Positions 23,474-46,245 of a DNA stretch of 64,000 bases are shown here, in pieces (the first letter of the stretch is position 1; each line of letters begins with the position of its first letter). The notes under the pieces are model-generated. The model was not told the origin of the DNA. It did not search any database and saw nothing but the letters and a program-made list of their open reading frames with translations. A program made the translations under genes and the position numbers. The DNA is taken from positions 1 through 64,000 of IMG/VR virus record IMGVR_UViG_3300001528_000360. One strand, 5' to 3'. This DNA is from a virus (Duplodnaviria; Caudoviricetes).

Positions 23474-25287
23474 TTATTCGAATTTCGTTAACATGTAAAG
23501 GGTCTGCACGCCCTCATTAGTTGTAGTACGCATATTCTGTCCTTGAATATTTAAAATATGACTCTTACTCATCATTAATCGTCTAGCTTCATCATTAGCC
23601 TCCTGAGTAAATAAACCTCTAATAGAGATCTGATCTCCCGTTTATGTTCATATAAGATCGTTAATCTTATATCGTTCATTTAAGAACAGCTTTATATTAC
23701 TATAAAGGCCAGACTATATCATCATCTTTTTAAGATGCTCTCTATTTCCACTCACTTGAGTGTACTAATAGTCGTTGAACCTTACTTCATAAGAAGTCTT
23801 GGCTGCTGATTATCTTATAAAAGATTTTCCAGCAATTAAGAGAGTTATTCGACATATATTTCTATATGAAGCGACTATATTTAATCGTAATCACCGCCTA
23901 ATCCTTTTAGCATAAGGTTAGACATAGTGATAGTATCATGGAAACTAATTTCAACTTGAGATTTTGATTGACTAAGATCAATATAAGGATAGTTATTATA
24001 TACTGTACCATTAACAAATACAGGAATAGTTTTAGTTGTACTAAGAACTGTTACCTGTGAAGGGAATGTAGAAAAGTAGTCAGTAATAGGATATCGAGTT
24101 ACATATACCATTTTATCTTTAGTCACATCAACAGCAGCCTGATAAAGAATATCACACCAAGTTGCAGGTCTATTTAAAGAAGAACCTTCCTCAGGGTGAT
24201 TCTTATCATAAAGTCGTCCTGTAAATTGTAAATAAACTTTTTCTTTCATATTCTTAACAGGAAGTTGAATAGGAACAAATCTGTCAGTGTGAGAAAAGAT
24301 AAATTGATCAATCTGTTTCTTAATATACTCATCATTAAAGTATAATTCAGGATTATCTAATTCAACAAAGATAATCTCACCATTTTTATCTTTAACAGGA
24401 TATTTCTTTCCTGATTGCTCAAATTCTCTTCTAAAGAATCCTTTTACCCAACTAATAATAAAAGGTGTAAAAAGAGAACAGCACTGAGCAAGCGGAACAC
24501 CAACGTGATAGAAATCTATGTTCATTTCACTCCATTTATTAACATGGAATGTAGGAGCAGAAATAACTGATCTTGCACCATAATCAATTGATTTACCAAG
24601 TAAGTTTCTACGAATAAGACCCTGTTTCTTTTCTAATTTTCCTTTAAGTAAATCATATATTTCAACTAAAGTTTCTTGAATTTTAGCTTTAGTATTAATC
24701 AATGTCATTTCAAAGGAATTATTATCTCTAACAATAGAGCATAGGCGAATTAATCGACTATACTTATCATTAATTTCATGATGGGATAATTTTCCTTTTT
24801 CAATATTTTGAAGATTTACATCTCGATAAAATGCAGGAATAACAATCCAATATTTTGTAAAAATTACATTCTTTTTATAAGCATGTAATAGATCAACTCT
24901 TTCATTACGTGCTAAACTATTATTCTTTTCAAAATTGATTTTCTCCCAATTGTCGTAAAGAAAACGAATGCCGGTTTTTCCAGACTCATCATTTTCCACT
25001 AATACTCCATTCTCAATAACATATTTTTTTGTGCCATGTACGATATGTTTAAAATTACGATTTAATCGTAAGATCAATTTATAGATAAAGGGATGAATAA
25101 AATAATCATGTAGATCAATATATGCATAAGTATTTTTTCTATCATTAATTGATACACCAAAGATATCAGTTGATAATAAACCAGTAGATGAAGGAATACC
25201 TCCACGAACAAATAACATTGGATCAGTTATTTCTTCAAGTTTATTAACATCAATAAATTCTTTAGTATCAAACAAATCTACTATCAT
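23474..25287 (-). CDS. Phage RNA polymerase beta' subunit, N-terminal part; spliced join(25287..23884, 23638..23474), 522 aa
   Basis: GLIRRNLLGKSIDYGARSVIS and TRYP motifs; splicing restores catalytic GGDYD|GDQ; exon 2 encodes EANDEARRLM...GVQTLYMLT as in beta'. Confidence 0.9.
23639..23883 (-). mobile_element. Group I intron (subgroup IA-like, ORF-less, 245 nt) in RNAP beta'
   Basis: P AATTGCTGGAAA, Q AATCAGCAGC, R GTTCAACGACTA, S GATATAGTCT; exon ends in T, intron ends in G; P1 CGAU|UA pairs with UAGUCG. Confidence 0.93.
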
Positions 25288-25645
25288 ATATATCCCCCTC
25301 CTTTTTATTATTTTTTGTACTAATCTCTACAAGAAGATAGTTTTTACTTTCAACTAAATTTAATTTGAAATGTTTGGAGAATATATAATCATCCCTATTA
25401 GAATTGATTTTAAATACAATGTCATTGATATATGTAATATCATGTGGTTCTATAATGACTCTTAGTGCATTTTTATTTGCTTTACAATAAATTTGCTCAA
25501 TTTTATTTAAATTAATATCTTCTATTAATGAGTAGAAATATTTAAATTTTTCATAATGGTTTTCTAAAATGTCAGAAAATAAATTACAATCGACTAACTG
25601 GGAATCAGTTAGTCGATTGAATACATTAATCAAATCTGTTTTCAT
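25268..25645 (-). CDS. Hypothetical protein overlapping the RNAP start
   Basis: SD AAAGGG before ATG 25645 (MKTDLIN). Confidence 0.55.
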   Translation of the reverse strand: MKTDLINVFNRLTDSQLVDCNLFSDILENHYEKFKYFYSLIEDINLNKIEQIYCKANKNALRVIIEPHDITYINDIVFKINSNRDDYIFSKHFKLNLVESKNYLLVEISTKNNKKEGDIYDSRFV

Positions 25646-25730
25646 AAGAACACGCCCTTTCTTGTTGTTTAGTTTTACCATCGACAGGTGTGCGGGCGTT
25701 TTCTTTAACGAATAGGAGAAATAAAAAAAA

Positions 25731-25970
25731 TTATCGACCACTTAATGCATCTTCGAGATCATCCTGATCTAAACCACCAGAACCTTCTTTATATTCTCGT
25801 TCAAGTCGTTTATTTCTAGTATCTCGCATTAATAATGCTTCTTTATAGGAAATTTTATATTTAAGATCATCTAAAGATATCTGATTCTTAAATAAAGCTA
25901 AGAATTCATCAATAAATGTATAAAATCCCCTTATTCGATCACGGTACTGAGCGCCTGTCGATACCGATAA
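25731..25970 (-). CDS. -1 frameshift extension of the 25931..27514 protein (79 aa)
   Basis: Frame with no usable start that opens two codons before the slippery CCTTTTTTA (25976-25968). Confidence 0.6.
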   Translation of the reverse strand, partial: LSVSTGAQYRDRIRGFYTFIDEFLALFKNQISLDDLKYKISYKEALLMRDTRNKRLEREYKEGSGGLDQDDLEDALSGR

Positions 25971-27514
25971 AAAAGGATATTCTCAAGCTCCATTTCAATG
26001 AACGGGACATAATTACCACAATGCGGGCAAGTAATATCCATCAGACCATAAGAAACAGACATATCATTCAGAAGGTCTTCACCCATCTTACGAATAACAA
26101 GAATATCAATTTCATTCAAAGTGTACAGTGTCTTAGAAATATCAGCACCACTGTCAACTTCAAAGTAACTGCCGGGCTCATCAGGATCGGGAACATAGAA
26201 TTTATTAATTAATGTAGAAAGTACAGCGGTCTGTGCGTACTTTTCATCAGTATTATCAGTTAAATCCTTAATAGACTTATTAATAAGATCATAAGCAGAC
26301 TGAACATAAATTTCAGCAATAATTCCACTATGAGGAAGCTTAATACGCTTAACATAAGAAATGAGAGAATCCTCATGAACCTTCTTAGCGGATTCCTCAG
26401 TAACAGAATTATCAACGATATTCATAAATGTATCCTGAAGCTTTTCACTCATAGCCTCTGCACGAATCAGAGAACGAACAGAATACTTATGGTTGAACGG
26501 CTTCTTGCACTTTTCACAAGTAAGAGGAATTTCATCATCATCAGGATAAGTAGAACACAGAAGGCCATAAATAAAAGTATTATAATCACTTGCCGCAGTA
26601 TTCATCAGGAACTCATTAAAGTCCATCTTACCAAGGCTTGTGCTTTCAATCTTATTATGAATCAAAGACCACTTATTCTGTGCATTCAGAAGAGCGTTGT
26701 CATTACCATCAATCAATGAAATAAGTTCATATGCAGAACAACCCTTCATCTCGGCAGTATAACCAGAAATAGGGAGAACGATATTCGTTGTAGCAATGCT
26801 AGTAACACGCTTAATAATCTTATCAATATCCTTCTTCTTAGGCTTCTTAGTCTTGATAGTATCAAGAGAAACCGTTTCAACTTCCTCTAACTTAATCTTC
26901 TTAACCTTTTCGAGCTTTTCATGCTCTTCATCAGTGAAATTGATAACACGACCAAAGCCGGACTTATCAATAACAACAACAGCTTCATTATACTTCTCAT
27001 GGAACTCATCCTTGGTCATACCAGGATTCTCTTCATCTTCAGTTTCCTCAGAATCAGAAGACTCAGTTTCAGCCTTCTTCTCTTCAGCATAAGCCTTAGC
27101 CTCTTCGATATCATTATCCATATCAGCAAGATAAGCTTCAAAGCTGCTCTGAGTACTAGGAGTTACACCAGTATATACAGGAGTTTCCTCTTCTTTTTCA
27201 ACAAGATCCTCGTTATTAATAACAAGACCAGGACCTTCATATGTTTCTTTCTTTTGTTCAGGAATATATGTGATAGATGTATCAACACTATCTTCCTTAG
27301 TTACAGTATTCTCATAGGACTGCTTGACAACTGCAGATTCAGTAGTTTCACCCCTCAAACGAGAAGCAAAATCACCACCAACAGTTACAGTCTCTTCATC
27401 ACCAGGAGTAGCAGCAGTAGGAGCTACTCGTGTAGATTCAAACTGTTTCTTGAGGGAATCAAGATCAATAGTATTATCTAAATGATTATTGTTGCTCATA
27501 GTTTTCTCCTCCAT
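25931..27514 (-). CDS. Baseplate hub/tail assembly chaperone (T4 gp26/gp51-like)
   Basis: IVLPISG, CEKC and CPHC zinc pairs, duplicated LP.SG domain; follows a gp25-like gene. Confidence 0.65.
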   Translation of the reverse strand: MEEKTMSNNNHLDNTIDLDSLKKQFESTRVAPTAATPGDEETVTVGGDFASRLRGETTESAVVKQSYENTVTKEDSVDTSITYIPEQKKETYEGPGLVINNEDLVEKEEETPVYTGVTPSTQSSFEAYLADMDNDIEEAKAYAEEKKAETESSDSEETEDEENPGMTKDEFHEKYNEAVVVIDKSGFGRVINFTDEEHEKLEKVKKIKLEEVETVSLDTIKTKKPKKKDIDKIIKRVTSIATTNIVLPISGYTAEMKGCSAYELISLIDGNDNALLNAQNKWSLIHNKIESTSLGKMDFNEFLMNTAASDYNTFIYGLLCSTYPDDDEIPLTCEKCKKPFNHKYSVRSLIRAEAMSEKLQDTFMNIVDNSVTEESAKKVHEDSLISYVKRIKLPHSGIIAEIYVQSAYDLINKSIKDLTDNTDEKYAQTAVLSTLINKFYVPDPDEPGSYFEVDSGADISKTLYTLNEIDILVIRKMGEDLLNDMSVSYGLMDITCPHCGNYVPFIEMELENILFYRYRQALSTVIE

Positions 27515-27522
27515 TTAAAAAA

Positions 27523-27942
27523 TTAGGTATCTAAAGAATTGTTGATTTTATAGTTAAAAGTGACTTCATTAGATTTATTATTTCTTTTAAATCCAATCAC
27601 TATAGTTTCACCTTCAACAGATAATGGAATATATATAAATAAAATAGATTCATTTTCATAAGGAAATAATAACATTTGCATTGATGATAAATCAATATAT
27701 GGTAATAATGCTGAGCATTGAGATGAAATTTGAGCTTTTATATATGACACATCAATGTCTTCTTCAAATTTATAAAGATACTGTTTAATATTAATTCCAA
27801 GATGAGGTAAAGATGGCATCTGTCCAGGTCGCATTAATAAAAGATTAATTAATACCTGTGCAACAGATTGAGCCTGTGTTAACATCTTTTGTTTTCCAAA
27901 ATTATCTATACCAAAATTTAATTCATTTTTTATCTCAGCCAA
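27523..27942 (-). CDS. Baseplate wedge subunit, gp25-like
   Basis: LINLLLMRPGQMPSLPHLGINIKQYLY matches the gp25/GPW pattern; late motif at 27982. Confidence 0.75.
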   Translation of the reverse strand: MAEIKNELNFGIDNFGKQKMLTQAQSVAQVLINLLLMRPGQMPSLPHLGINIKQYLYKFEEDIDVSYIKAQISSQCSALLPYIDLSSMQMLLFPYENESILFIYIPLSVEGETIVIGFKRNNKSNEVTFNYKINNSLDT

Positions 27943-28050
27943 GCAAAATCACCTCTCTTTCATTATAATGTAGGTATATCTTTATCTATATGTGAATACT
28001 ATAAAAAATAAAAAAAAAGAAGAGGATATAATATCCTCTTCTTTTTCAGG

Positions 28051-28254
28051 TTAATCCCAAGTCTCGTCATTAATATCAGGGGCACCATTATTCTTTCCAC
28101 CCCAACCTTCAAAAAGGCTCTCATATGAACCAGATTCTAAAGGTTTTTCAGTTCTGGTTTTATGTATTTCATTTCTTTGTTTTTTCTCAGTAAGATTTTT
28201 ACAATGTTTAACAAATCCCTCTTCCCGAACGATCATCTTGACGTGATAAGACAT
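28051..28254 (-). CDS. Early hypothetical protein
   Basis: SD AAAGGA, early motif at 28316. Confidence 0.5.
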   Translation of the reverse strand: MSYHVKMIVREEGFVKHCKNLTEKKQRNEIHKTRTEKPLESGSYESLFEGWGGKNNGAPDINDETWD

Positions 28255-28351
28255 GGTTATATTCCTTTCTGGTTTTATGAGTTTTCCTTCTCATTAATTT
28301 TACTTTATTATAGATATAATATATATTTATAAGTATTAAAAATACGATTTC

Positions 28352-28717
28352 TTAATGTATTGCAAATAAACTTATGAATAATTTATTTGCAACCTTATCA
28401 AGAATTTCTAAATAATCATTATCAGTTACTCTGTTTGTTTTCTTATTATATAATGCTAATAAATCTTTATGAACTTTAACTATAGCCCAAGGTAGTAATA
28501 TGTCTACAGGAACATCTTCTGAAGATATTTCAAATGTTGCATGAAGATGAGCTGTAACAGTTTCAATAATATCAAGTTCAATTACATCATGAAATGAAAC
28601 AGGTTTTTCTTGTAATGATTGAATTTTTTCAGTGTGTAACAATTCTAGTCTTAGCATAACTTCCTGTTGCATTTCTTTTACTGATGAGATTAATTTTGTT
28701 TTCAAAGTAATTACCAC
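28352..28717 (-). CDS. Early hypothetical protein
   Basis: Early motif at 28750; start uncertain. Confidence 0.5.
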   Translation of the reverse strand: MVITLKTKLISSVKEMQQEVMLRLELLHTEKIQSLQEKPVSFHDVIELDIIETVTAHLHATFEISSEDVPVDILLPWAIVKVHKDLLALYNKKTNRVTDNDYLEILDKVANKLFISLFAIH

Positions 28718-28814
28718 CTTTAGGTTATATTATTTACATATCTATTATTATAATATATACTTTAAAAAGATGATTATACGAAAAAAAAGATTGGGAAAAC
28801 CCAATCTTTTTTAT

Positions 28815-29087
28815 TTAACCGAAAGTTAATACTTTGCCGGTTTTGTTATTTCTAACTCCACCAACAAGCCAGCCAAAGCTATCCTTTTCAACAGGATAAA
28901 CCGTATATCTAAGTTCTTCCAATGTAGTAATGTTATTGTAGTTAACTCCACCATCATGTGTTATCAGCAACTCATTACATACTGAAGTTGCATGATCAAT
29001 TTCCGGATTAGATTCAAAATATATCCCATCGGCAGGATTATCTTGAATACTATCGAGTAATTCGGCAAATTCTTTTATGGTTATCAT
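28815..29087 (-). CDS. Early hypothetical protein
   Basis: Coupled to the upstream ORF. Confidence 0.6.
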   Translation of the reverse strand: MITIKEFAELLDSIQDNPADGIYFESNPEIDHATSVCNELLITHDGGVNYNNITTLEELRYTVYPVEKDSFGWLVGGVRNNKTGKVLTFG

Positions 29088-29088
29088 T

Positions 29089-29304
29089 TTACATATTTCC
29101 TCTCATTTTATCAATCACTTCATTAAGTTCTTTGTTAGTTGATTTAGCGAAATTTAATTCCTCCTTTAATCTTAAATTTTCTTCTTTTGCAGTTCTTAAC
29201 TGATTTTCAATATTGCTAATAATATTATTAGCAATAGAAACTGCTTCATTGTATCCTTTGCAATAGTCTGTAGATGTACACATACTCATTGTACGATACT
29301 CCAT
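29089..29304 (-). CDS. Early coiled-coil hypothetical protein
   Basis: SD AAGGAG, early motif at 29351. Confidence 0.6.
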   Translation of the reverse strand: MEYRTMSMCTSTDYCKGYNEAVSIANNIISNIENQLRTAKEENLRLKEELNFAKSTNKELNEVIDKMRGNM

Positions 29305-29436
29305 ATTAAATTTCTCCTTTTAAAATATATTTTATGATTTTACTATTATTATAATATATATTTATAAATCTCAACTTTACGGTAAAATAATACATTTAAC
29401 ATTTATGTAAGATAAGATAAATAGGAGGTATTCCTA

Positions 29437-29937
29437 ATGAATTCTGAAATGTTTAATAGTCTTTTAGAAGACGTTCAGTTTGTAGATATTATGAATGCTG
29501 ATATATTAAATGAATCTTCATTAAAGTCTGTTGTAAATGATAATTTTAAACATAAAGGAAATAAAAAATTATCTACATTCAGAAATGTTCATGTTGATAA
29601 ATCATATATTAATAAATATAACATCACATATAAATTTTTAAAACATGCTGATCTTAAAGATGATATTACTGTGTGGATGGATAAAGATAAAATTGTTTCA
29701 ATATTAATGATAGATCATAAATCTAATACTTCTCATTTTATAACCGGAATTGAAGTTACAAAAGAATATCAAGGTTATGGTTTAGGAAAACAAGTGTTAG
29801 ATTATGCTGTAAAACAAAAAGGCGCAAATGAGTTATCTGTTATGAAAGATAATAAAGTTGCTATTCGAATGTATGAAAAATATGGATTTAAAAAAGATAA
29901 AAAAGATCATGGACAGATGTATTTCATGCATATTTAA
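29437..29937 (+). CDS. GNAT acetyltransferase with N-terminal shared leader
   Basis: EYQGYGLGK motif A, NKVAIRMYEKYGF; late motif at 29398. Confidence 0.85.
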   Translation: MNSEMFNSLLEDVQFVDIMNADILNESSLKSVVNDNFKHKGNKKLSTFRNVHVDKSYINKYNITYKFLKHADLKDDITVWMDKDKIVSILMIDHKSNTSHFITGIEVTKEYQGYGLGKQVLDYAVKQKGANELSVMKDNKVAIRMYEKYGFKKDKKDHGQMYFMHI

Positions 29938-29953
29938 AAGGATGTGATTAATA

Positions 29954-30718
29954 ATGAAGAAAATTAATTGTCCTCTTTGTGATGAAAGATATACTACATT
30001 AGACGGTCTTTATGATCATATTGAAGAAGATCATAGTGATAATATTCCTAAGGATATGTCAATTCCTCAGTATTTATATTTTTTACGCACAGGAAAAGCT
30101 CATGGGTCTTGTGTTGTTTGTAAGAAAGATACAGAGTGGAATGACGTTACAGGAAAATATAAAAGATTCTGTAACAATCCTAAGTGTAAGGAAACTTACA
30201 GAAAACAATTTGAAAAACGTATGATTGATAAATACGGTAAAACTACACTTTTAAATGAACCTGATCAACAGAGAAAAATGTTAGCACATAGAAGTATTTC
30301 TGGTGAGTATACTTGGTCTGATGGTACTAAGAAGACTTATACAGGAACTTATGAATTAGATTTCTTAAAGTTCTTAGATGCTTTTATGAACTTTGATTCT
30401 GATGATGTATTTGCACCTTCTCCTCATACGTATTATTATATGTATAAAGGAGAAAAGAAATTTTATATTCCTGATTTCTGGATTCCTTCTTTAAATCTTG
30501 AAATCGAAATCAAAGAAAGTGATAATAAACATACTCATATGCAGGTTGACAGAGAAAAAGAAAGATTAAAAGATAATGTAATGAATGGATTTAAAAATAT
30601 CGGATATTTAAAAATCGTTGATAAAAATTATGATGGGTTTTTTAAATATCTTGCAGATAAAAAGGATAAATTTGTTAATGCTAAGAATATTGATTTCTCT
30701 GGTGTTGTTAAAGAATGA
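29954..30718 (+). CDS. C2H2 zinc-finger + TnsA-like PD-(D/E)xK endonuclease
   Basis: CPLC..H...H; CVVC...C...C; YIPDFW...EIEIK. Confidence 0.7.
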   Translation: MKKINCPLCDERYTTLDGLYDHIEEDHSDNIPKDMSIPQYLYFLRTGKAHGSCVVCKKDTEWNDVTGKYKRFCNNPKCKETYRKQFEKRMIDKYGKTTLLNEPDQQRKMLAHRSISGEYTWSDGTKKTYTGTYELDFLKFLDAFMNFDSDDVFAPSPHTYYYMYKGEKKFYIPDFWIPSLNLEIEIKESDNKHTHMQVDREKERLKDNVMNGFKNIGYLKIVDKNYDGFFKYLADKKDKFVNAKNIDFSGVVKE

Positions 30719-30727
30719 GGTGTTTAT

Positions 30728-31336
30728 ATGAATTCTGAGATGTTTAATAGTCTTTTAGAAGACGTTCAATTTGTAGATATTATGAATAATGATATTTTAT
30801 CAGAATCAGTATATCGTAGGAAAACAAATCTTTATATAATTTATCCAGAATCTATGAATGATAATTTTGCACAGCCTGGGGTTTCATTTGGAGCTGATAT
30901 TAATACTGCTGTTTATAATTATAAGCAAAAATTACATACGCATAATAATATTAAAAATCCTCCTGAAAAAGTATATGTTTATATACCAGATGCAGGGCAC
31001 TATGATTTTCGTATGTCTTATGAAAATTTCAATTCTTGGTGGTCACTAGATAAAGTCTACCTTAGGATGATTGGAATAATTAAATTTAATGAAGATTGGT
31101 CTTGGGAGTGGATTGAGAAAGTTGATGAATCATATTGTAATGATTATCAGAATAGTGAATTTGATATTTTAACAGAATCTAAGATTGAATTTGTAAATGA
31201 TAAAGGTGAAGAAGTTCCAAAAGTTTGTCCAAAATGTGGTTCTAAAGTAGGTATATTCCTTAGAGGAGAACCCGTTTTCCTATGTACTAATAAGAAATGT
31301 GGAAAATATTTTGGAACTGTTCCTTGTAAAGATTAA
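30728..31336 (+). CDS. Hypothetical protein with shared leader and C-terminal zinc ribbon
   Basis: First 20 aa identical to 29437; CPKC...CTNKKC. Confidence 0.65.
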   Translation: MNSEMFNSLLEDVQFVDIMNNDILSESVYRRKTNLYIIYPESMNDNFAQPGVSFGADINTAVYNYKQKLHTHNNIKNPPEKVYVYIPDAGHYDFRMSYENFNSWWSLDKVYLRMIGIIKFNEDWSWEWIEKVDESYCNDYQNSEFDILTESKIEFVNDKGEEVPKVCPKCGSKVGIFLRGEPVFLCTNKKCGKYFGTVPCKD

Positions 31337-31352
31337 TAAATGAGGTGACTAT

Positions 31353-32468
31353 ATGAATAAGAATGATTTATATCCTGTGTATATTATTCTCTTTTCTAAT
31401 GATACTGATTTCGGTAAGTTAATTAGAAAAGCTACTGGATCAGAATATTCTCATGCAGTTATTGCATTAGATAGTACTATGAATACTATGTACTCATTTT
31501 CTGATATTCCTTTCTCTCATGCAGGATTTACTGGAGCAGGTTTTGTTAGAGAATCTCTTTGGTCTCCAATGTTTAAGAAGAATAGATATTTTACTATTCT
31601 TGTAACTTTTGTTACAAAAGAACAACGTGACACAATTCAGAATAAGATTGATTATTTCTGTGAAAATTATAGAAAGTTTAAATATAATGATATTGGTCTT
31701 GTTCAGTATTATCTGAATTTTAAGGAAACCAAGGGTCATAGTGAAGACAAGAAGAAACGTTGGTTCTGTTCTGAGTTTGTTTCTTATATGGCTAAGGCTG
31801 GTAACATTAGTGGATTTAATGATATCATGCTTGCACCTGAAGATATCAAGAATCTTAATAATCCTAATGTTATTAATCTTGGTGATTTTACCATTTCTAA
31901 ATTTAAAGAATCCGATTTAATTCGAAAAACTGAAGCAGCTAAGAATACATTTATTAAAAATATGGAAGGTACCATTGTACATGAATCTTTCTATTTTAAT
32001 TATGTAGATGCTGTCAGAGAATCAGGAATTAAGGACATTATTAAGTTAAAAAAGAAAGAATTTAAAGAATCTGAGATCCATGCCTATACTTCCCTTATTG
32101 ACTGGAAGTATTTGTATGATGAGTATATCAAACTATTTCCTAATAGTGATCCTAATAGTAGATTTGATTTATTTGAGTTGATTGTAAGAAAAGTTCTTGT
32201 TCCTTTCCATCGAGATGCTAAACGAGCAACTCAGGAAATTGATGCTGAACTTAGAAATATCTTTAAAATTATTGGAAATTCAGTTATTAAAGCTGTAGAT
32301 GTAGTAAAGGGATTTATTTATACCAACAATGTTGGATATTCATATCCTGAAATGATAAAGTTTGCAACTATTCATGAAGGATTTGAGGAATTTGAAGTAT
32401 TAGTAAATCCTACTCCTACTTTAGCAAATGGACTTAAGAATGATAAGTTTGAAACTTTCTTTGAATAA
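31353..32468 (+). CDS. Permuted papain-like (YiiX/NlpC-P60) enzyme
   Basis: YSHAVI...YN...WFCSEFV. Confidence 0.7.
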   Translation: MNKNDLYPVYIILFSNDTDFGKLIRKATGSEYSHAVIALDSTMNTMYSFSDIPFSHAGFTGAGFVRESLWSPMFKKNRYFTILVTFVTKEQRDTIQNKIDYFCENYRKFKYNDIGLVQYYLNFKETKGHSEDKKKRWFCSEFVSYMAKAGNISGFNDIMLAPEDIKNLNNPNVINLGDFTISKFKESDLIRKTEAAKNTFIKNMEGTIVHESFYFNYVDAVRESGIKDIIKLKKKEFKESEIHAYTSLIDWKYLYDEYIKLFPNSDPNSRFDLFELIVRKVLVPFHRDAKRATQEIDAELRNIFKIIGNSVIKAVDVVKGFIYTNNVGYSYPEMIKFATIHEGFEEFEVLVNPTPTLANGLKNDKFETFFE

Positions 32469-32517
32469 AAAAAATAAGAACTGTATGAGATTAATTTCTC
32501 ATACAGTTCTTTATTAC

Positions 32518-33661: not shown

Positions 33662-33692
33662 AATAATTTCTCCTTATAATTTTAATAATTTA

Positions 33693-34370: not shown

Positions 34371-34482
34371 ATATAAATATCCCCTTTTAAATATCATTAT
34401 ATACATTAATAATATATATTTAATTTTAGTTTTGAAAAAATAAATAGAGAAGTATGGTTTTCCATACTTCTCTATTTTTATA

Positions 34483-35550: not shown

Positions 35551-35707
35551 TAGTTAATACCTCCAGTCATTTTAGACTTTACATCTATGTTCAAATTTAA
35601 CTCATACCCTCATTTTAAATCTTTTTATATAACGGTTTTCTAATACAAAATATGTACAATTATATAAGACTAAAACGTGTGAAAATTCTAGGAAAGGGAT
35701 GATTTTT

Positions 35708-36544: not shown

Positions 36545-36567
36545 TTTTTTAAGGAGGCTATTACATT

Positions 36568-37017: not shown

Positions 37018-37138
37018 TTATTATAAGTGAATGGTGATTAGTTTCACCATTCACTTTTTTATTTAATAATTTGATTTAATGCTTAGAAAACAATAATGTA
37101 AGGTTCAAAAGAAATTTCTCTGAAAGGAGTGATTATAT

Positions 37139-38749
37139 ATGTATTTGACAATTGATACTAAGAAAGTTTTAGATAGTAAAAAACCTAAAGTTGATGCTCT
37201 GACAGAATCATTTCATGTTGCTAAAGAGAATCAAACTCCTACAAATGTGATTAATTTCTTATCTTTATATAGAAATACTTCTAAAGATACTATTTTAGAG
37301 AATCTTTCTTCTCTTTGTGATATTGATTCAGATATGACTTTCTCATATTTTGAAAATGTATTAAACATTGCAGAATTGTCTGAAAGTACTTTAAATGAGT
37401 ATAAATCTCATATTCAGTCTTTAATGGAATCTTGTGAAGAAGATCTCTATAAAGATAAATTAACTAATGCTAATAGTAAAATTGATTCTGTCATTGAAAA
37501 TATGAATGATATGAATAACATTCATGATGAAATGATGATGAATCTTGCTGTTAGCAGAATTAGAAAATCTTGCATGTTTGAATCTTATTTAGCAGATGAT
37601 TTAGAGGTTTTAATTTATAATATTAATAGTTCTCCAGAGGTTATTTATGATTATGAACAGATTATCAGAAAAATTAAAACTGATAAGTCAGGAATGTATC
37701 AATCAAGTTATGGTATGCTTCTTATTAAGAATACTGAAATGATTCGTAATTTACAGATTGTTGTTACTGGTGACGTTCTTGAACTGTTAACTAGTATGCC
37801 TAATGTAATTGCTGATAAAATCATTTCTTCTAATATGTCACCTAGTGTTATCAGGAACTTTATTAAGATCTATGATAAACAGATTGTTACTCTGTATTCT
37901 GATTTAAAACGTAATGAACCTAAACAGTATATTTTATATTCAACTTATGTAAGAAATCTTTCTGAAGCTAAGCAAAAAATTCTTGATTCTTTAAAGACTC
38001 CTTTAAAAGAAAATATTGCAGAAATGTCTCCTGATATTATTCTTTATGATGAAGGAGTTATTGAAGATTTTATTGCTGAGATGGAAGATTCTCTTGCAGA
38101 TATTATTTTTGATCCAGGCAAAGAATTAAATGAAACTAAGCTTGAAAATTTTGCTAAATTATATCGTACATATGAAGCTACTAGTAAGCTTCAGAAAGGT
38201 ATGATTTCTGCAGGACATAAAGCTGGAAATACTGCACAGAAAGCTGTTTCTAAGATGAAGTCTAATATGACTGATGCTAAGAGAGCTACTCTTCCTGTTA
38301 AGAAGGCTTTAGATCCTTTTTTTAATTTATTTAGTGATACCATCAATAAATTAAAAGATATGGATAAAAAGGAAAGAACCGAACGTATTATTACAGGAAA
38401 TTATCGTGCTAAATTAGTTAATTTTATTAAACGCGGTATTGTAGGTATTGCTGCTATTGGTGCTGCTGGTGCTGGCGCAAAGGTTGCTGCTGGTATTGTA
38501 TTTTCACCTAAGATTGTTGGATTAATTCTTGCCGCTATTACTATTCTTGTCGGTACAGCCATTGACAAGAAAATTGATAAGAAACATCGTCAGGCTATTC
38601 TTGTTGATCTTAAAAATGAACTTACTCTTGTTGAAGAAAAGATCGAAGATGCTAAGGGTGATGGTGCTCGTGATAAGAAGTATCAATTAATGCGTATTCA
38701 GCAGAAATTGAAGAAAGATATTGAAAGAATTGAATATAATCTGGATTAA
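37139..38749 (+). CDS. Putative head core/internal protein with a hydrophobic hairpin
   Basis: Late motif at 37089; acidic N-part with xES sites, basic C-part with a Gly/Ala-rich hydrophobic stretch. Confidence 0.5.
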   Translation: MYLTIDTKKVLDSKKPKVDALTESFHVAKENQTPTNVINFLSLYRNTSKDTILENLSSLCDIDSDMTFSYFENVLNIAELSESTLNEYKSHIQSLMESCEEDLYKDKLTNANSKIDSVIENMNDMNNIHDEMMMNLAVSRIRKSCMFESYLADDLEVLIYNINSSPEVIYDYEQIIRKIKTDKSGMYQSSYGMLLIKNTEMIRNLQIVVTGDVLELLTSMPNVIADKIISSNMSPSVIRNFIKIYDKQIVTLYSDLKRNEPKQYILYSTYVRNLSEAKQKILDSLKTPLKENIAEMSPDIILYDEGVIEDFIAEMEDSLADIIFDPGKELNETKLENFAKLYRTYEATSKLQKGMISAGHKAGNTAQKAVSKMKSNMTDAKRATLPVKKALDPFFNLFSDTINKLKDMDKKERTERIITGNYRAKLVNFIKRGIVGIAAIGAAGAGAKVAAGIVFSPKIVGLILAAITILVGTAIDKKIDKKHRQAILVDLKNELTLVEEKIEDAKGDGARDKKYQLMRIQQKLKKDIERIEYNLD

Positions 38750-38764
38750 AGGAGATGAATAATT

Positions 38765-39514
38765 ATGGATATATTTGATATTTTAAAAGAAGCAAAGAAT
38801 CCATCTCCTGCTAAAAAAGTTATTAGAGTTAGTACTAATGATAATACTGACTATACTGAGGAATTAGATGATGCTTCTCCTCAGGCAGATGAGAATATTG
38901 ATGCTACTAGTCAAGAAGATTCAGTTGATTATACTTCTGATATTGAAGAGGTAGAGCCTGGATCTAATGAAGAAACTAATACAGATGAATCTGAAGATGA
39001 TGCTTCTGATAATGACGATGAATCGAATGATTATACTGATAATTTAGATCAGGATGAAGATAATCCTGATCAAGATACTGATGAAACTACTGATGATGGT
39101 GCTCCTGAATCAACAGATTATACTGAAGATGCTGGTGATACCGGAGATGAAACTCAGGATGATGGAATGGGTGATGATACCCAGGATGATCAATCTCAGG
39201 AAGAAGCTAATCCTGAGCAAGAATTAGAGAATAAACAAAACATGGAATTATTAAATCGAACTGTCGAATTATATAATTCCGTATGTGGTATTTGTAATAA
39301 ACTTGATGCTATTACTCATATGAATATTTTAGCAAATAAAGTTAATATTCAAGTAAAACGTAACTTTAATAATCTTTGTAGTTATATCTATAAATTTATT
39401 ACAGGACCGTTTTTGACAAATTCTTATGTTAAGAATCTCTATATTTATAATTTTATCATTCAGACCTATAGAATTAATCTAGAGATGCTTAAGAAAATAA
39501 ATACATTAGAGTGA
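38765..39514 (+). CDS. Highly acidic putative scaffold/core protein
   Basis: D/E-rich with four DYT repeats; directly before the capsid gene. Confidence 0.5.
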   Translation: MDIFDILKEAKNPSPAKKVIRVSTNDNTDYTEELDDASPQADENIDATSQEDSVDYTSDIEEVEPGSNEETNTDESEDDASDNDDESNDYTDNLDQDEDNPDQDTDETTDDGAPESTDYTEDAGDTGDETQDDGMGDDTQDDQSQEEANPEQELENKQNMELLNRTVELYNSVCGICNKLDAITHMNILANKVNIQVKRNFNNLCSYIYKFITGPFLTNSYVKNLYIYNFIIQTYRINLEMLKKINTLE

Positions 39515-39523
39515 TTTTATCTG

Positions 39524-39679
39524 TACATTACTATAAAAGGTAGGCAGAATCATTCTATTAAACTAAACATTAATTTAAAATAAGCAAAACCTTATATTAA
39601 GTTGTCTTATTTATTTCCATGGCGAATTTGTCTCTTAAAAGTGACAAATAATTTTATTTTAAGAAGTACAAATATATAA
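39524..39679 (+). promoter_or_regulatory. Three tandem late promoter motifs upstream of the major capsid gene
   Basis: TACA-N6-TAA 39524, AACA-N6-TAA 39566, TACA-N6-TAA 39667. Confidence 0.65.
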
Positions 39680-39708
39680 TTTAATTAAGAAAGGATGTGC
39701 TCTTTATT

Positions 39709-41661
39709 ATGTACGAGTATTTAGATACTGAAAACACTAGCAAAGTTATTGGTTCTTTTTCTCATGATAAAAATGCCGAGTTTAAGGATAGCGTGAAGCA
39801 CCTGTTTGAGAGCTTCCAGAGCTCTTATCAGATGGATGCTATTTCTGATATCTCGAAGATTCTGCGCGTCGACACTCTTAAGGAGGCTTATAAGAATGAG
39901 CTTCTTTCTGACGTTGCCGAGAGCCAGCTTAATGATGAATATTATGCTATGATGCCTGAGAAGCTTGAGCAGCTGTTTGAGAACTCTTCTCTGGAGATGC
40001 TCCAGGAGTCCGGTGTTGCCGCTCTTGCTCCTATCGTTGGTATTACTCTGCCTATCTTGAAGAAGTCCTACATTGAGGGTCATTCTAAGGATATCGTTAT
40101 GACTGAGGTTCCTAGCAAGCCCATTATCAAGGCTGCTTATGAGCGTCGTTTCCTGAAGGATGCCCAGGGTAACAAGCATTACATCCCTGACATTTTCTAT
40201 GATGATTCTTATAAGACCATCATGGCTATGGGTCGTGGTAAGGCTGTGTCTTCCAAATGGTATCCCGAGGGTTCTGAGAAGGTTCCTTTCCAGGATCTTG
40301 ACATTCTTGGCGAATCCGGTGGTTCTATTGCCCGTCGTGATTCTCTTGCTCTCGACTTCTGCATTAAGGCTGTTCAGATTGATGTTAACGGCACTCTTGT
40401 GAATGTTCCTGTTAACATTACTCCGAATCTTGCTGCTAATAGCTCCTTCACTGCTGAGGTTAAGGCCTCTAAGGATGGTACTACTGTTAAGGATCTGGTC
40501 ATTGGTCAGGTTGACTTCTATAATGGTACTGTTTCCGTTGGTTGCACTGGTGGTAAGGTTGCTAAGGTTCAGTTTGGCGGTCATCTGTCTAACGAGAACA
40601 ACAATGAGACCATTGAGCTCGATCGTGAGCGTGAGCTGATGGAGTGGAAGATTCCTGATGGTGTTCGCATCAACACGGGTCTCACTCTTGAAAAGATTAA
40701 GGATTACAAGGCTCTGTTTGATTTCGATATTACTACCGAGATCATTGCTGATATGTCTACCGTTCTCTCCCAGACTGAGGATAGCGATATTCTTGGCTTC
40801 CTGAACGATAGCTATGATACTTGGAAGACTCGCACTGAGCTGCCGTTTGGTTACAGTGATGGCTTCACTGCTGAGGGTTACTTCTCCTGCGAGCCTCCTG
40901 CCAATAAGTTCGTCACTCGTTCTCAGTGGATTGATAGCGAGCTTAAGTATGACCTCAACCGCTTCATTGATGAGCTGAAGGTCAAGCTCCGCAATCAGGA
41001 TCTGATGTTTGTGGTGTATGGTCATCCCAATGTCATCACTCTCATTCAGGATAACGTCCGCTGGGTCATCGACGAGGATACCAAGATTGGTGGCATCCAG
41101 CTCGATTATCGTTTTGGTGTTATGACTGCTAACAAGAATCGTATCCACGTTATCAGCACTATGAAGTGCCCGAAGAGCCGTGGTCTGCGTGTTGTTGCTT
41201 ATCCTCTCACTAAGGAAATCATTACGTTCAAGCACTATAAGTATAGTCTGAACATTGAGAACGCTTATCGTAACGCTCTCACTCCGCTTACTCCGAACGT
41301 CATGGGTACGTCTCGTTACATTACTACCGAGGTTCTGCCTGTTCAGGGTGAGTTCCATGTTATGGATAACCAGTTTGCTCTTAAGGATCCGACTGCTCCC
41401 GCTACTGCACAGGTTGCTACTCCTGTGATTAGCCTGGCTTCCGGTACTTATTCCGCTGCTCAGACTGTTACCGTTGATTGCGCTACTCCTGGCGTGAACA
41501 TCTATTATACCGTTGATGGTTCTGATCCTGTTGTCGGTACTTCTCCTCTGATGAATGCTTCCATTAGCATTGCTGCTACCTCCACTCTGAAGGTTATCGC
41601 TGCTAAGGCTGGTATGATCCAGAGCAATATCGTTACCGCTGAGTACACCATCAATCCGTAA
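39709..41661 (+). CDS. Major capsid protein with C-terminal Fn3-associated/CHB_HEX_C Ig-like domain
   Basis: Strongest codon bias in the window; position after protease/scaffold; acidic propeptide ending LQES; C-terminal VATPVISLASGTY...IYYTVDGSDP. Confidence 0.8.
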   Translation: MYEYLDTENTSKVIGSFSHDKNAEFKDSVKHLFESFQSSYQMDAISDISKILRVDTLKEAYKNELLSDVAESQLNDEYYAMMPEKLEQLFENSSLEMLQESGVAALAPIVGITLPILKKSYIEGHSKDIVMTEVPSKPIIKAAYERRFLKDAQGNKHYIPDIFYDDSYKTIMAMGRGKAVSSKWYPEGSEKVPFQDLDILGESGGSIARRDSLALDFCIKAVQIDVNGTLVNVPVNITPNLAANSSFTAEVKASKDGTTVKDLVIGQVDFYNGTVSVGCTGGKVAKVQFGGHLSNENNNETIELDRERELMEWKIPDGVRINTGLTLEKIKDYKALFDFDITTEIIADMSTVLSQTEDSDILGFLNDSYDTWKTRTELPFGYSDGFTAEGYFSCEPPANKFVTRSQWIDSELKYDLNRFIDELKVKLRNQDLMFVVYGHPNVITLIQDNVRWVIDEDTKIGGIQLDYRFGVMTANKNRIHVISTMKCPKSRGLRVVAYPLTKEIITFKHYKYSLNIENAYRNALTPLTPNVMGTSRYITTEVLPVQGEFHVMDNQFALKDPTAPATAQVATPVISLASGTYSAAQTVTVDCATPGVNIYYTVDGSDPVVGTSPLMNASISIAATSTLKVIAAKAGMIQSNIVTAEYTINP

Positions 41662-41695
41662 TTGATTACAATTACTAATTAATAATTAACTTTAT

Positions 41696-41727
41696 GCCCT
41701 AGTATCAGAAATGATACTAGGGCTTTT
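41696..41727 (+). terminator. Intrinsic terminator after the capsid gene
   Basis: gccctagtatca-gaaa-tgatactagggc + T run. Confidence 0.85.
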
Positions 41728-41820
41728 ATTTATAGTTTTCGTAAGTTTTCTCTAAAACACATTGAACTTTTATATAAGAAGTATTTCAAATGCATAATAT
41801 ATAAGGAAAGGTGTGTTATT

Positions 41821-43113
41821 ATGGAAGTTAAAAAGTCTGAAGACCTTTTATATATTGACAAGTGTTTTATGTCTATTAAAAATAAAGTCGCTGTTGCTGA
41901 AAATCTGAATAAGATTAGTTTAGCATTAAAGCGTATTTTTGATGTTAATTTCACTCTTAAAGTTGTTGATAATACCTCAAATACTTTCTTTGGTATGAAT
42001 ATCTATCCTACGGTTTCTACTATGGATATTATGGTTGATTCTATTATTAATAAGAAATCTTCCTTAAATGATATTCTTGCTATTTGGGAAAAGAATGAAG
42101 ATTGGTATGTTGAAATTGATAGTCTTCTTTTATATGATATTGGTTTAAATGCTAATCCTCCTGAGATTACTTCTGTTCTTCTTCATGAGATTGGTCATGT
42201 CGTTTATGCCAATACAATCCCCCAGAGATTACATAAGTTAATTCGTTTTAAAATTATGAAGTTAAATTATCAGATGAAACAGTTAATTTCTACTGAGAAG
42301 ATTCGTAAATTATTTAATATTGCTATCATTGAATCTTGTTCTTCTAAGAATTATGATTATATTGATAATGATGTTGAAAAAGTTGCTGATAGATTTGTTC
42401 TTCAGTATGGTTATGGTGAGGAATTAAATTCCTTTATTAATAAACTGATCAAGACTCAGGGTAATTCTATGGTCAATCGTAGTGATAGTGATATGGATAG
42501 AGACATTACTACTGTTGTGAATTGGACAGTTTTAAATATTAAGGAATTAGAGTTTAGAAAGAAATCTTTACGTCGGTCATTAAAGGTTGAGATCTTGAAA
42601 AATCCGAGTGAACTTTCTAAGAAAGTTATTCAGGATATTTATAATTCGTTCTTTGGTGAAGTTACTGACAAGTACAGATTACTGCTGTCTGAACAGGCTG
42701 GTTTATCAGAAGATACTTATAATGAGCTTCGTACTGACCAACTACTCGATGAGTTTGTTGCTAGAGTATTGACAGAAGCTTCTAATAATATTTTTGATAA
42801 GAAGGGTAAGTTAAAGAAGATTACTCAGAATGATATTGATATTCTTACTGTTGAAGCAGAAAGAATTGATACTATTGATGATAAGATTTATCTTTTAGAT
42901 AAATTATATTCTCAGATGGAATTAATTAATATGGGTCTTGATTATATTGAAAGTAATGAAAAGGGAATGAAAGAAAAAGTTCTTCAGTCTAAGAGTACAT
43001 TACTTAGTATGAAAGATCAGTTAAATGATCTTAGATCTCAAATTCTTGCTACTAAGATTATTGATCGCCAGATGGGTATTTGGCTTAAAATGCCCAAGGG
43101 ATATGAAGGGTAA
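41821..43113 (+). CDS. Putative virion protein with HExxH zincin motif
   Basis: LLHEIGH...E..AD.F...GYG. Confidence 0.55.
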   Translation: MEVKKSEDLLYIDKCFMSIKNKVAVAENLNKISLALKRIFDVNFTLKVVDNTSNTFFGMNIYPTVSTMDIMVDSIINKKSSLNDILAIWEKNEDWYVEIDSLLLYDIGLNANPPEITSVLLHEIGHVVYANTIPQRLHKLIRFKIMKLNYQMKQLISTEKIRKLFNIAIIESCSSKNYDYIDNDVEKVADRFVLQYGYGEELNSFINKLIKTQGNSMVNRSDSDMDRDITTVVNWTVLNIKELEFRKKSLRRSLKVEILKNPSELSKKVIQDIYNSFFGEVTDKYRLLLSEQAGLSEDTYNELRTDQLLDEFVARVLTEASNNIFDKKGKLKKITQNDIDILTVEAERIDTIDDKIYLLDKLYSQMELINMGLDYIESNEKGMKEKVLQSKSTLLSMKDQLNDLRSQILATKIIDRQMGIWLKMPKGYEG

Positions 43114-43259
43114 GTGACTGAGAAATCTCGACTACAGAGGATTTTTATAAAAAATAAATATATTGGACTATACAGGGTTTTCCTGTATAGTCCTTATTTT
43201 ATTATCATTTTAACAAAATTATAATCATAATATAAAAGAGGAAGGAGGAATTTCTCCTT

Positions 43260-46245
43260 ATGGGAAAATCATTTATTTATGATGTAAATACAGCAAATAT
43301 TTCTTTTGTACAAACTGCAGTAGACTTAAAGAAATTAGGGATTAAAAATAATATGTTCTTTTTAAAATTGTATGATCCATCATTAAAAGGAGTAGATCCG
43401 CATTCTCCTTTCCTTACTAATGATCAGATCATTAGAATTATTAATGAGTGTATTATTAATCCCTGGTATTATTTAAGAGAAGTTGCAAGAATTCCTGACC
43501 AGGGTAATGTAAAAGGTGTTCCTTATCTTTTAAATAGAGCTAACTTAGCAGCAACATGGTGTTTTCTAAATGGTATTGATCATTATGAAGTTATTCCTAG
43601 ACAGATTGGTAAAACTGAATCCACCATTGCTATAATCACATGGGCTTTCTTATTTGGAACAACGAACTCAGAAATGATGTTCTTAAATATTACAGCCGAT
43701 CGTGCCTATGCTAACCTAGCTAAAGTAAAAGATCAGAGAGCATTATTACCCCCATATTTACAGTTTAAAGTTGCATTTGATGATGAAGGAAAAGAAATTA
43801 AAGCTACAGATAATACAAAATCTTTAAAGAATGCAACTAATGGAAATTCAATTGTAACAAAACCTTCTGCTCGTGGTATTGAATCTGCTGAAAGAATTGG
43901 TCGTGGTTCTTCTCAGGTTATTCAGTATTATGATGAGTTTGAGTTTATTTCTTATATCAAAACTATTATGGAAGCCGCGGGTCAATTGGCTCTCATGTTT
44001 TTACAACATGATAACTCCTTTAATTGCTGGAAACTCTCGTTAGGTTATCAGTACTTATAGTAACATAAGTGACAATCTGATAAATAGAGACAATCAGCAG
44101 CCAAGCCTTATATGTCTTTATATAAGGAAGGTTCAACGACTATCGAAAAGGTACTATAAGAGAAATACTTATAGGAGTAACTGAGTAGAGTACACTTAAA
44201 TGTGGAAATGGGGAGCATTTTATATATGGTAATAGTATATAAGATGAAGATATAGTCTATATTCTATAGAGATATAGAATAATAAAATGCCGGCTTATAA
44301 TACTGCTGCAGAGAATGCTAAAAGAAATAATGCTATACATTGTCGTTAAAGTAAGCGACATATACATAGTAATATGTATTGGAAACTCTCTTAATTGCTG
44401 GAAAGTCTTTTTATAAGATAATCAGCAGCCAAGGCTCGAAAGAGTAAGGTTCAACGACTATTAAGTACACTCAAGTGGGTGGAAATGGAGAGCTCCTTAT
44501 TATTTAAGGATGAAGATATAGTCTGGTCTCTATAGTGATATAGAGCAGTTCTTAAATGAACGATATAAGATTAACGATCTTATATGAACGAGAAATACGA
44601 TCTTTACAAGCACGCCAGGTGACTTAGATTCACAGCCTGGTGAAGATGCATTACAAATTGTTGAAAAAACTTGCAAGTGGTCAGAAAGTCTTTACGATAA
44701 ACCTATTGAAGATGTTCTTGACTATATTGCAATGAACTCTGAAAATAATATAGTATATATTGAATATCAATATCAGCAACTTGGTAAAGATGAAACTTGG
44801 TTTAATAAAGTTTGTGCATTATTGAATAATAATAAGCTTAAAATTCAACGAGAAATATTCTTAAGACGTATGCATGGTAGCTCTCAGTCTCCTTATGATC
44901 CTGAAGATCTTGATGCTATTCAGGATAAAAAAGGAACGATTAAAGAAGAGCTATTTATTAATAGAATTTTTAAGCTTGATATTTATGAAACTCTTGTAAA
45001 AAATAGAATTTACTTTATTGGTGTTGACGTTTCAAATGGTTATGGTTTGGATAATTCAGCAGTTACAATTTTTGATCCTTATGCACTTAAAGTTGTTGCA
45101 GAATTTAAATCTCCGCATATTGGTGTAAAGGACTTAATCAAGTTCTTATATATCCTAGTTAGAAAATATCTACCTAATTCTATCTTAGCAATTGAGCGAA
45201 ATGCAAATGGTGAAGCAGTGCTTGATCATTTAAGAGATAGTGAAATTAGAGGAAACTTATACTTTGATAATTCTAAAGAAATTAATGTTGATGATAAGTT
45301 AGACGGACAAGGTTTTATTCGTAAGGAAGCCGCACGTAGACAATTATATGGTAAACAAATGCCTTATAATATAGTAATATATTATACAGATTTCTTTAAT
45401 TGCTGGAAAGTCTTTTATAAGATAATCAGCAGCCAAGACTCTTATATAAGAGTAAGGTTCAACGACTAGTCTTTATGACGTACACTCAAGTGAGTGGAAA
45501 TAAGAAATATCCTATATAGGATAAAGATATAGTCTCATCTCTATAGTGATATAGAGCAGTTCATAAAAGAACGATATAAGAGTAACGATCTTATATGAAG
45601 ATATTGATTTGGACAGGCGGTAAATCTCGTGAGATTATGTTCTCTCTGTTGGATGAATATGTAAAAGAACACAAAGATGCTTTTGTTGGTCATTATGTTA
45701 TTGATGACTTGATGAAACTTGTTCGTGTTAATTCTAAGATACAAGCTGTAACAGGACAGCATGATGATAATATTATGTCGTTCTTAATGTGCTTGTATTT
45801 ATATTATTATGGTAATAATCTTGCTCGTTATGGTTTTACTAGAGGATCTCTTCCTGATGAAGAAGATCAGAATAAAGGAATGGATTATGGTGAAATCGTT
45901 AATGCTTTATCTGATACTGATAAAGAATTCTTTGGAATTGATAGTAATACACCGATTGATCAACCATTAAACATTGATATGATGTCAATGATAAATAATG
46001 GAAGAGGATTGATTTCTAAAGAGGAATTAAGAAGTGGAATTAATGATAATTCTATGAAAAAAATAAGACAACCTACAATGGATGCTTATTCAGCAAAGGT
46101 TTATAATGAAATGATGCAAGCTCAGAGAGAATCTGAAGCATTTAATAATAGAGTCGGATTCACTAATGGATATAGAAATATGGATGAAAGTGGAGAAGAT
46201 GACTATAGTTATAATTTAGATGTTTTTGATGAGCTAAATAGTTAA
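43260..46245 (+). CDS. terL: Terminase large subunit; spliced join(43260..43982, 44290..44346, 44600..45352, 45607..46245), 723 aa
   Basis: Walker A PRQIGKT, Walker B YYDEF, coupling motif IFTSTPG, nuclease IGVDVSNG, IERN, HDD; three introns remove in frame. Confidence 0.92.
43983..44289 (+). mobile_element. Group I intron 1 of terL (307 nt, ORF-less)
   Basis: P/Q/R/S core motifs; GGT|caa 5' site with P1 GGGU|C : GGCUC; terminal G before CCG. Confidence 0.9.
44347..44599 (+). mobile_element. Group I intron 2 of terL (253 nt, ORF-less)
   Basis: P/Q/R/S motifs; P1 UGUCGU|U : AGCGACA; terminal G before ATC TTT ACA AGC ACG CCA. Confidence 0.93.
45353..45606 (+). mobile_element. Group I intron 3 of terL (254 nt, ORF-less)
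   Basis: P/Q/R/S motifs; P1 GGU|A : UGCC; terminal G before ATT TGG. Confidence 0.9.

Follow-up and report, generated by a model that had tools for sequence, protein, structure and literature searches.

Interrupted terL (large terminase subunit) and RNA polymerase (RNAP) genes are already known from AR9-like jumbo phages. The AR9 beta-prime gene carries one group II and one group I intron with endonucleases (PMC12350094), the AR9 terL gene is annotated with five exons (KU878088) and its four group I introns are confirmed by Rfam, and in the Staphylococcus MarsHill group introns lie in polymerase, terL, DNA polymerase and gyrase genes, whose exon boundaries vary (bioRxiv 10.1101/2020.12.14.422802). 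Here we describe four group I introns without an open reading frame (ORF) in a 64,000-nt stretch of viral DNA, called the window below, which forms the first 64 kb of the 152,429-bp IMG/VR contig IMGVR_UViG_3300001528_000360. One intron splits a virion RNAP beta-prime gene (the RNAP intron) and three split terL (terL-1, terL-2 and terL-3). They belong to the same intron family, in the same phage group, as those of AR9/PBS1 and the MarsHill group. What is unusual is their density on the contig, three to four times that of relatives, together with evidence for separate evolution of the 5' address, which contains the guide, and the ribozyme core.

At the sequence level, AR9/PBS1 introns are 76-77% identical over 84-87% of terL-2, and introns of Herelleviridae and T4-like phages are 68-74% identical to it. 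Matching places number 9 in AR9 and 14 in Internexus. As in the window, the AR9 virion beta-prime gene is interrupted after the residues GGDYD; unlike the RNAP intron, however, the AR9 intron at this polymerase site encodes an endonuclease, and its 5' end is unrelated. In terL, AR9 has no intron at the positions of terL-1, terL-2 or terL-3.

Twort, SPO1/SP82 and Bastille also have IA-type introns in essential genes, several per gene, with HNH_3/NUMOD4 genes in a peripheral loop (context in PMC11878797, PMC3984707), but these genomes hold a handful of introns, whereas here most copies are ORF-less and show evidence of exchange between address and core. Many small ORF-less introns that split terL, polymerase and nucleotide-metabolism genes are likewise found in Jug and crAss-like gut phages. 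Jug phages average 18.5 introns per genome of ~206 nt each, with splicing confirmed by metatranscriptomes (PMC12880540); in contrast to the phage studied here they are of an unrelated lineage and host, with genomes of 360-402 kb and a roughly 4-fold lower density, and that study reported no analysis of site turnover or modularity within one family. In eukaryotic rRNA, related ORF-less copies occupy different sites, and site choice has been ascribed to guide pairing (PMC1299323; reviewed in PMC3984707). The targets here are instead conserved motifs of protein-coding genes, no reverse transcriptase was found on the contig, and cores that are closest to one another have unrelated guides. By what route ORF-less group I introns arrive at new sites is a long-standing question, and direct evidence for any such route is lacking (PMC3984707). 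A first-pass annotation of the window had called the route uncharacterised; reverse splicing, endonucleases of relaxed specificity and collaborative homing had in fact already been proposed (PMC3984707).

The four window introns were identified with the group I model RF00028 of Rfam (gathering score 50 bits), and their bounds were set by three demands, namely a continuous reading frame, a U at position -1 and a terminal G. Positions refer to the window unless stated otherwise.

23883..23639, minus strand: RNAP intron (#1), 245 nt, no ORF, phase 0; Rfam match 23690-23902(-), 91.8 bits
43983..44289, plus strand: terL-1 (#2), 307 nt, large core, short tail; Rfam match 43973-44279(+), 87.6 bits
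44347..44599, plus strand: terL-2 (#3), 253 nt, compact core; Rfam match 44336-44545(+), 89.5 bits
45353..45606, plus strand: terL-3 (#4), 254 nt, compact core; Rfam match 45343-45556(+), 86.5 bits

All four match the model over its whole length (positions 1-253) at 86.5-91.8 bits, all are in phase 0, and none holds an ORF, so that no intron-encoded endonuclease gene is present in any of them. The junctions read ACGAT|GGA (RNAP), CGGGT|CCG (terL-1), GTCGT|ATC (terL-2) and ATGGT|ATT (terL-3). Phase and junction words are thus as first annotated, and the view of one ORF-less family at unrelated sites in two genes is upheld by the Rfam scores, the lack of ORFs in 4/4 and the restored frames described below.

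The same model returned 16 full introns above the cut-off on the whole contig, plus fragments that are halves of ORF-split copies, and a scan with invariant core words of the family raised the genome-wide count that the first-pass annotation had called for to 27 copies. This is a lower bound, as a probable 28th copy starts near 152,095 at the contig end. The 23 introns outside the window lie at contig positions 65409-151278 (loci L069-L073). The 27 copies make up 8.1% of the contig DNA, a density of ~18 per 100 kb compared with ~4-6 per 100 kb in the phage BpSp (KT895374) and in G001. The latter is one of two IMG/VR relatives used throughout: G001 (263,786 bp, complete, proteins 72-88% identical) and G002 (209,768 bp, proteins 61-76% identical). 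The host genes (n=13) comprise two beta-prime-like and three beta-like genes, terL, portal, two family-B DNA polymerase genes, a helicase, a topoisomerase/gyrB-like gene, gyrA and one conserved unknown (gp281-like). All 13 are colinear with BpSp genes, and removal of the intron restores the frame and colinearity with the BpSp gene, and also with G001 and G002 genes, in 27/27 cases. Assembly chimerism from dispersed repeats was ruled out, since all 13 spliced genes are colinear with G001.

Most copies (19/27) are ORF-less and 224-310 nt long, and 20/27 are in phase 0. NUMOD4+HNH_3 endonuclease genes occupy the P6 loop of 6/27 introns, all of them outside the window. Two introns of an RNAP beta-like gene, #17 and #18, have P6-loop ORFs of 124 and 75 aa (L071:9281-9652, minus strand, and L071:9960-10184, minus strand) without a Pfam match, possibly non-endonuclease passengers or decayed genes. 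A 30-aa match in intron #5, considered as a relic endonuclease C-terminus, was discarded: since the conserved core is overlapped by the endonuclease ORF of #26, the match reflects homology of the ribozymes.

The host genes of the window introns are composed of the following exons.

23884..25287, minus strand: RNAP beta-prime exon 1 (virion RNAP, N-terminal part); PHROG 2986, E=2.5e-85; tblastn matches to BpSp, LPJP1 and AR9 beta-prime
23474..23638, minus strand: RNAP beta-prime exon 2, 54 codons plus stop, starting with GDQ
43260..43982, plus strand: terL exon 1, 241 codons; PHROG 32359 terminase large subunit, E=4.8e-50
44290..44346, plus strand: terL exon 2, 19 codons; joined without a break to its neighbours in AR9, G002 and the contig L097 (introduced below)
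44600..45352, plus strand: terL exon 3, 251 codons
45607..46245, plus strand: terL exon 4, 212 codons plus stop

A Pfam search of the terL and RNAP exons gave no match, whereas PHROGs did. The RNAP intron cuts the catalytic motif of virion beta-prime between GGDYD and GDQ. Once spliced in silico, both terL and beta-prime align in a single high-scoring segment pair over every junction to the uninterrupted BpSp genes, and likewise to metagenomic relatives; the spliced RNAP ORF aligns across its junction to BpSp gp212, residues 6-533.

A consensus fold derived from an alignment of 19 copies contains P3, P4, P5, P6, P7.1, P9 and P9.2. Double-sided compensatory changes were found in 25/43 consensus pairs, including pairs of P3, P6, P7.1, P9 and P9.2, which bears out the earlier report of such changes in P3 and P9 and extends it to P6 and P9.2. 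With compensated double changes in so many pairs, these are constrained ribozymes rather than relics. A covarying hairpin between P7 and P3', together with blastn kinship of 68-77% to AR9, Herelleviridae and T4-like introns, places them as putative, functional-looking phage introns of IA type, grouped with those of T4 td, Twort and AR9, a placement that draws on these two features.

Over their full length, the RNAP intron and terL-2 are 84% identical, the RNAP intron and terL-3 79%, terL-2 and terL-3 78%, and any of the three and terL-1 67-73%. The description of terL-1 as the more diverged copy therefore stands; its extra length lies in P5 and the P7.1/7.2 region, and its 3' tail is short. 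The identical 42-nt run that had been singled out between the RNAP intron and terL-2 is real, although it ranks 10th among the longest shared runs of 351 pairs and is unexceptional for cores that are 92% identical.

When the P1-P2 segment is set aside, the nearest cores usually sit in other genes: #1 and #8 are 93% identical, #3 and #1 92%, #4 and #20 91%, and #8 and #9 94%. Intron #20, the closest core to terL-3, bears an HNH gene. Similarity in P1-P2 is nearly uncorrelated with similarity of the core (r=0.11-0.22), and core identity shows no link to target-site identity among the copies (Mantel p=0.53). The closest cores carry unrelated P1-P2 segments, and #8 and #9 differ even in having P2, differences too large to have arisen by point mutation between cores only a few percent apart. 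P5, P7.1/7.2 and the 3' tail vary in length, their variants being combined differently from copy to copy, and exact runs of 38-52 nt are shared between pairs that are only 66-78% identical overall. These patterns suggest that each copy is modular, with a 5' address (P1 and its guide, usually P2) joined to a generic core from P3 to P9.2.

A few pairs depart from this pattern and share both the address and the 5' target, though not the 3' exon: #3/#12 (TGTCGT), #15/#25 (TGGT), #9/#13 (TGGGT) and #23/#27 (GCAT). Introns #15 and #25 are 87% identical over the whole intron, address module included. Intron #12, which has the target of terL-2, carries an HNH gene.

In all copies, P1 is formed by the last 3-8 exon nucleotides and a guide that opens with G, and in 27/27 the U at the splice site is wobble-paired to the guide G and the intron ends in G. 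The guides of the window introns are as follows.

23872..23875, minus strand: guide of the RNAP intron, GTCG; pairs with the exon end CGAU, P1 being lengthened by two intron-intron pairs
43989..43992, plus strand: guide of terL-1, GCTC; pairs with GGGU
44355..44360, plus strand: guide of terL-2, GCGACA; pairs with UGUCGU
45361..45363, plus strand: guide of terL-3, GCC; pairs with GGU

Each guide had been said to pair with its own exon. Over the 27 introns this proved correct: pairing with the own exon averages 4.96 bp as compared with 2.86 bp for other exons (permutation p<1e-5, guide position floating for each intron-exon combination). The exon-guide helices in the window are short, however (RNAP 4, terL-1 4, terL-2 6 and terL-3 3 bp), and among the four window introns alone the guide discriminates its own exon only for terL-2.

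We then compared site occupancy among relatives. A first scan of metagenomes with terL exon 3 brought up no relative, and Rfam at its gathering threshold reported no intron in the terL loci of relatives; breaks in tblastn alignments and nhmmer profiles did reveal introns there, which Rfam had missed because ORF-split ribozymes score low. Counted in this way, introns of the superfamily number ~11 in G001, ~5 in G002 and at least 13 in BpSp. The BpSp introns are unannotated (e.g., L030:16841-18404, L031:41210-43432 and L031:7359-7589), five of them stand in a row beside an RNAP beta gene, and the split RNAP and PolB genes of this phage are annotated as separate coding sequences.

G001 and G002 both lack an intron at no fewer than 21 of the 27 sites. 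The only site at which G001 has an intron at exactly the same position is that of terL-1, and for G002 it is the helicase site; close to two further sites, the introns of G001 are unrelated or offset. At the terL-1 site, G001 holds a 1.0-kb intron with an HNH gene and L097, a Logan contig from SRR27608064, also has an intron, whereas G002 and P0054/55 have none. An intron is present at the terL-3 site of L097, and probably of one more relative, and absent from ~45 others. No relative examined has an intron at the terL-2 site, which is empty in L097, G001, G002, AR9, BpSp and ~15 further proteins. At the Mg-motif of the polymerase, a hot spot for introns in the phage group, AR9 has an intron at the same codon boundary as the RNAP intron and ~10 relatives are empty, while in many metagenomic relatives introns, ORF-less and ORF-bearing alike, are staggered there by 1-2 codons. 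As a parallel among Twort, SPO1/SP82 and Bastille introns, Landthaler and Shub reportedly described related introns at staggered positions within one conserved motif. Other insertion positions in terL among relatives lie at about 222-242, 275, 300, 358 and 519. The idea of a recent spread to new sites, as put forward in the first-pass annotation, is partly supported: 21 or more sites are empty in both nearest relatives, but three of the four window sites (terL-1, terL-3 and the RNAP region) are occupied in relatives.

Two observations on these loci stand apart. In the G002 lineage, terL is uninterrupted, and immediately upstream of it is a second ORF with 30% identity to terL (L043:2249-3196). 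One gene call on L097 matches a database protein only when TAG is read as Q, probably the result of the gene caller reading through an intron rather than of recoding.

In a tree of 58 cores, the introns of this phage require 8 changes as compared with 19.4 under shuffling, and clustering by genome, not by site, was found in all four phages analyzed (this phage, BpSp, AR9 and G001). The compact copies, among them the RNAP intron and terL-2, radiate as a near-star whose branches are very short. Also within this clade, terL-3 groups with #20, on a branch that is longer and has good support. Identity within the genome reaches 91-94%, as opposed to ~72-83% to same-site or same-gene introns of relatives. 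Genome-wise clustering and the near-star of the compact copies show that in this lineage the family has undergone expansion or homogenisation. On the question of phylogeny versus insertion site, the copies thus follow genome and not site; the terL-1 site has an HNH-bearing counterpart in G001.

Introns at shared sites indicate how address and core may come apart. At the terL-3 site, L097 has an intron that agrees with terL-3 in exon end, P1 loop, guide and P2, but from P4 onward it shows GCGGGG and a long P5 extension, the core type of #19. At the terL-1 site, the 5' half of the G001 intron matches #19, whereas the 3' half matches #2. Guide retuning after transposition had been proposed as the main story; because the terL-3 address occurs in L097 on a different core, the combination of one core with different guides is better explained by core exchange, and retuning in that role is not borne out. 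In addition, the junctions lie in conserved residues, with identity to BpSp of 48% around junctions and 32.5% at random positions (p<2e-4). Such enrichment in conserved residues of core genes reads as a likely signature of DNA-level homing among related phages.

Taken together, the account towards which we lean, by a modest degree, is one of polymorphic homing combined with core exchange between copies and with occasional guide-compatible jumps. Sites would be gained and lost by homing-type gene conversion among co-infecting related phages, and some of the gain would be helped by intron-borne, I-HmuI-like HNH nicking endonucleases. Within a genome, recombination between intron copies would repeatedly exchange or homogenise cores while the address stays with its site, and the outcome would be cores that are almost identical although their guides and sites are unrelated. 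A minority would be true duplicative jumps to sites that share 4-6 guide-pairing nucleotides (#15/#25, #3/#12, #9/#13 and #23/#27), and terL-2 may be one such jump.

Several points weigh against this account. The contig is estimated to be 62% complete. Splicing is deduced from structure and restored frames. The L097 contig ends ~95 nt into its terL-3-site intron, so the core swap there rests on the P4 type and the P5 extension. The PHI recombination test on aligned cores was not significant (p=0.24 and 0.59), although RNA covariation and a high level of homoplasy weaken this test. Identity among the six HNH proteins is only 26-48%, free-standing copies of this HNH family are absent from the contig, and HNH action at the sites of ORF-less introns is putative and assumed. 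No donor phage with introns at most of the 21 or more lineage-specific sites was found. A homing origin of these sites is likewise an assumption, and duplicative transposition within the genome would need fewer unseen players. Duplicative ectopic transposition is for these reasons kept alive as a contributing process: there are address-sharing pairs, terL-2 is unique to this phage, and the 21 or more lineage-specific sites have no known donor.

An alternative that we regard as improbable, yet worth keeping in sight, is transposition at the RNA level, in which the intron would reverse splice into short guide-complementary sites of mRNAs, be reverse transcribed and recombined into DNA, and then have its guide retuned. 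It would account for the sites that are empty in both nearest relatives (at least 21/27), for the star-like clade of compact copies with its very short branches, and for the absence of terL-2 from relatives. It would also fit the sister pairs named above, which share 4-6 nt of the 5' exon target and not the 3' exon, #15/#25 being 87% identical with the address module included. Recent copies should, however, share the parental guide, and the closest cores have unrelated guides, with P2 even absent in some (#8/#9); a shared guide and target is seen in a few pairs and leaves no overall trace in the Mantel test. The terL-1 and terL-3 sites are already occupied in relatives, and the concentration of sites in conserved core-gene motifs is not predicted by this route, which has no direct experimental support (PMC3984707). 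Nor was a reverse transcriptase gene (RVT_1) found in the contig (62% complete), in G001 (100% complete) or in G002. With respect to the first-pass annotation, which had asked for a free-standing endonuclease or a reverse transcriptase, neither a free-standing copy of this HNH family nor a reverse transcriptase was found on the contig.

Less probable again is ectopic insertion at the DNA level, where HNH enzymes of the phage itself or of co-infecting phages would nick or break DNA at conserved sites, illegitimate repair would copy in a resident intron, and selection would retain splice-competent products. Six HNH-NUMOD4 genes in sister introns, the bias of sites towards conserved sequence and the staggered hot-spot positions in polymerase and terL genes of relatives agree with it, and cleavage of relaxed specificity as well as homing despite limited exon homology have precedents (PMC3984707). 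However, the flanks of the donor show no homology to the new sites, a precise junction with a matching guide would have had to arise by chance at more than 20 sites, and the contig lacks free-standing endonuclease genes of the HNH family. Finally, separate ordinary homing of each intron from other phages, with their likeness reflecting a common, slowly evolving phage intron family and no intragenomic process, is very improbable: the family is indeed widespread (AR9, PBS1, Internexus, BpSp, Herelleviridae and T4-like phages match at 68-77%) and some sites are common to relatives, but the within-genome identity of 91-94% is far above the ~72-83% to same-site or same-gene introns of relatives, and introns cluster by genome in four phages.

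The contig itself comes from a jumbo phage of the AR9/PBS1 type that has not been cultivated, and the proteins it encodes share 30-38% identity with those of the uracil-DNA jumbo phages BpSp, AR9/PBS1, LPJP1 and the Staphylococcus MarsHill group, and AR9/PBS1-like traits include split multisubunit RNAP genes and terL, portal and capsid genes related to AR9/BpSp (PHROG, tblastn). A near-identity DNA search of the phage collection gave no match, and relatives were found only in protein mode. A relative with 54% identity in terL (P0021) is part of a 244-kb contig that was deposited as Romboutsia ilealis, which hints that the phage group may infect Clostridia-type Firmicutes. The major head protein in the window (PHROG 20655; 39697-41661, plus strand) has a C-terminal chitobiase/Fn3-associated domain (PF13290, PF13287), suggestive of a decorated capsid. 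The sole tRNA gene of the window is tRNA-Leu(TAA) at 56912-56998 (minus strand).

Returning to polymorphic homing with core exchange, its modular copies leave room for a bolder idea, which we put forward tentatively and consider unlikely: the compact ORF-less ribozyme could be a guide-addressed modular mobile element, whose core moves between P1-P2 cassettes while new addresses arise, and which would have colonised more than 20 new protein-coding sites fast, without an endonuclease or reverse transcriptase of its own. If true, this would be natural ectopic transposition of a group I intron on a large scale. Independently of this idea, the contig and its sequenced relatives form a dense natural resource, with 27 or more copies of one family, most of them at sites that are empty in relatives ~80% identical in protein. 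Two processes that are usually lumped together, colonisation of sites and homogenisation of cores, are separable here, and similarity between introns is not to be read as recent transposition. Intron swarms of this kind fragment terL, portal, polymerase and RNAP genes, and thereby mislead gene calling and marker-gene phylogenies of jumbo phages.

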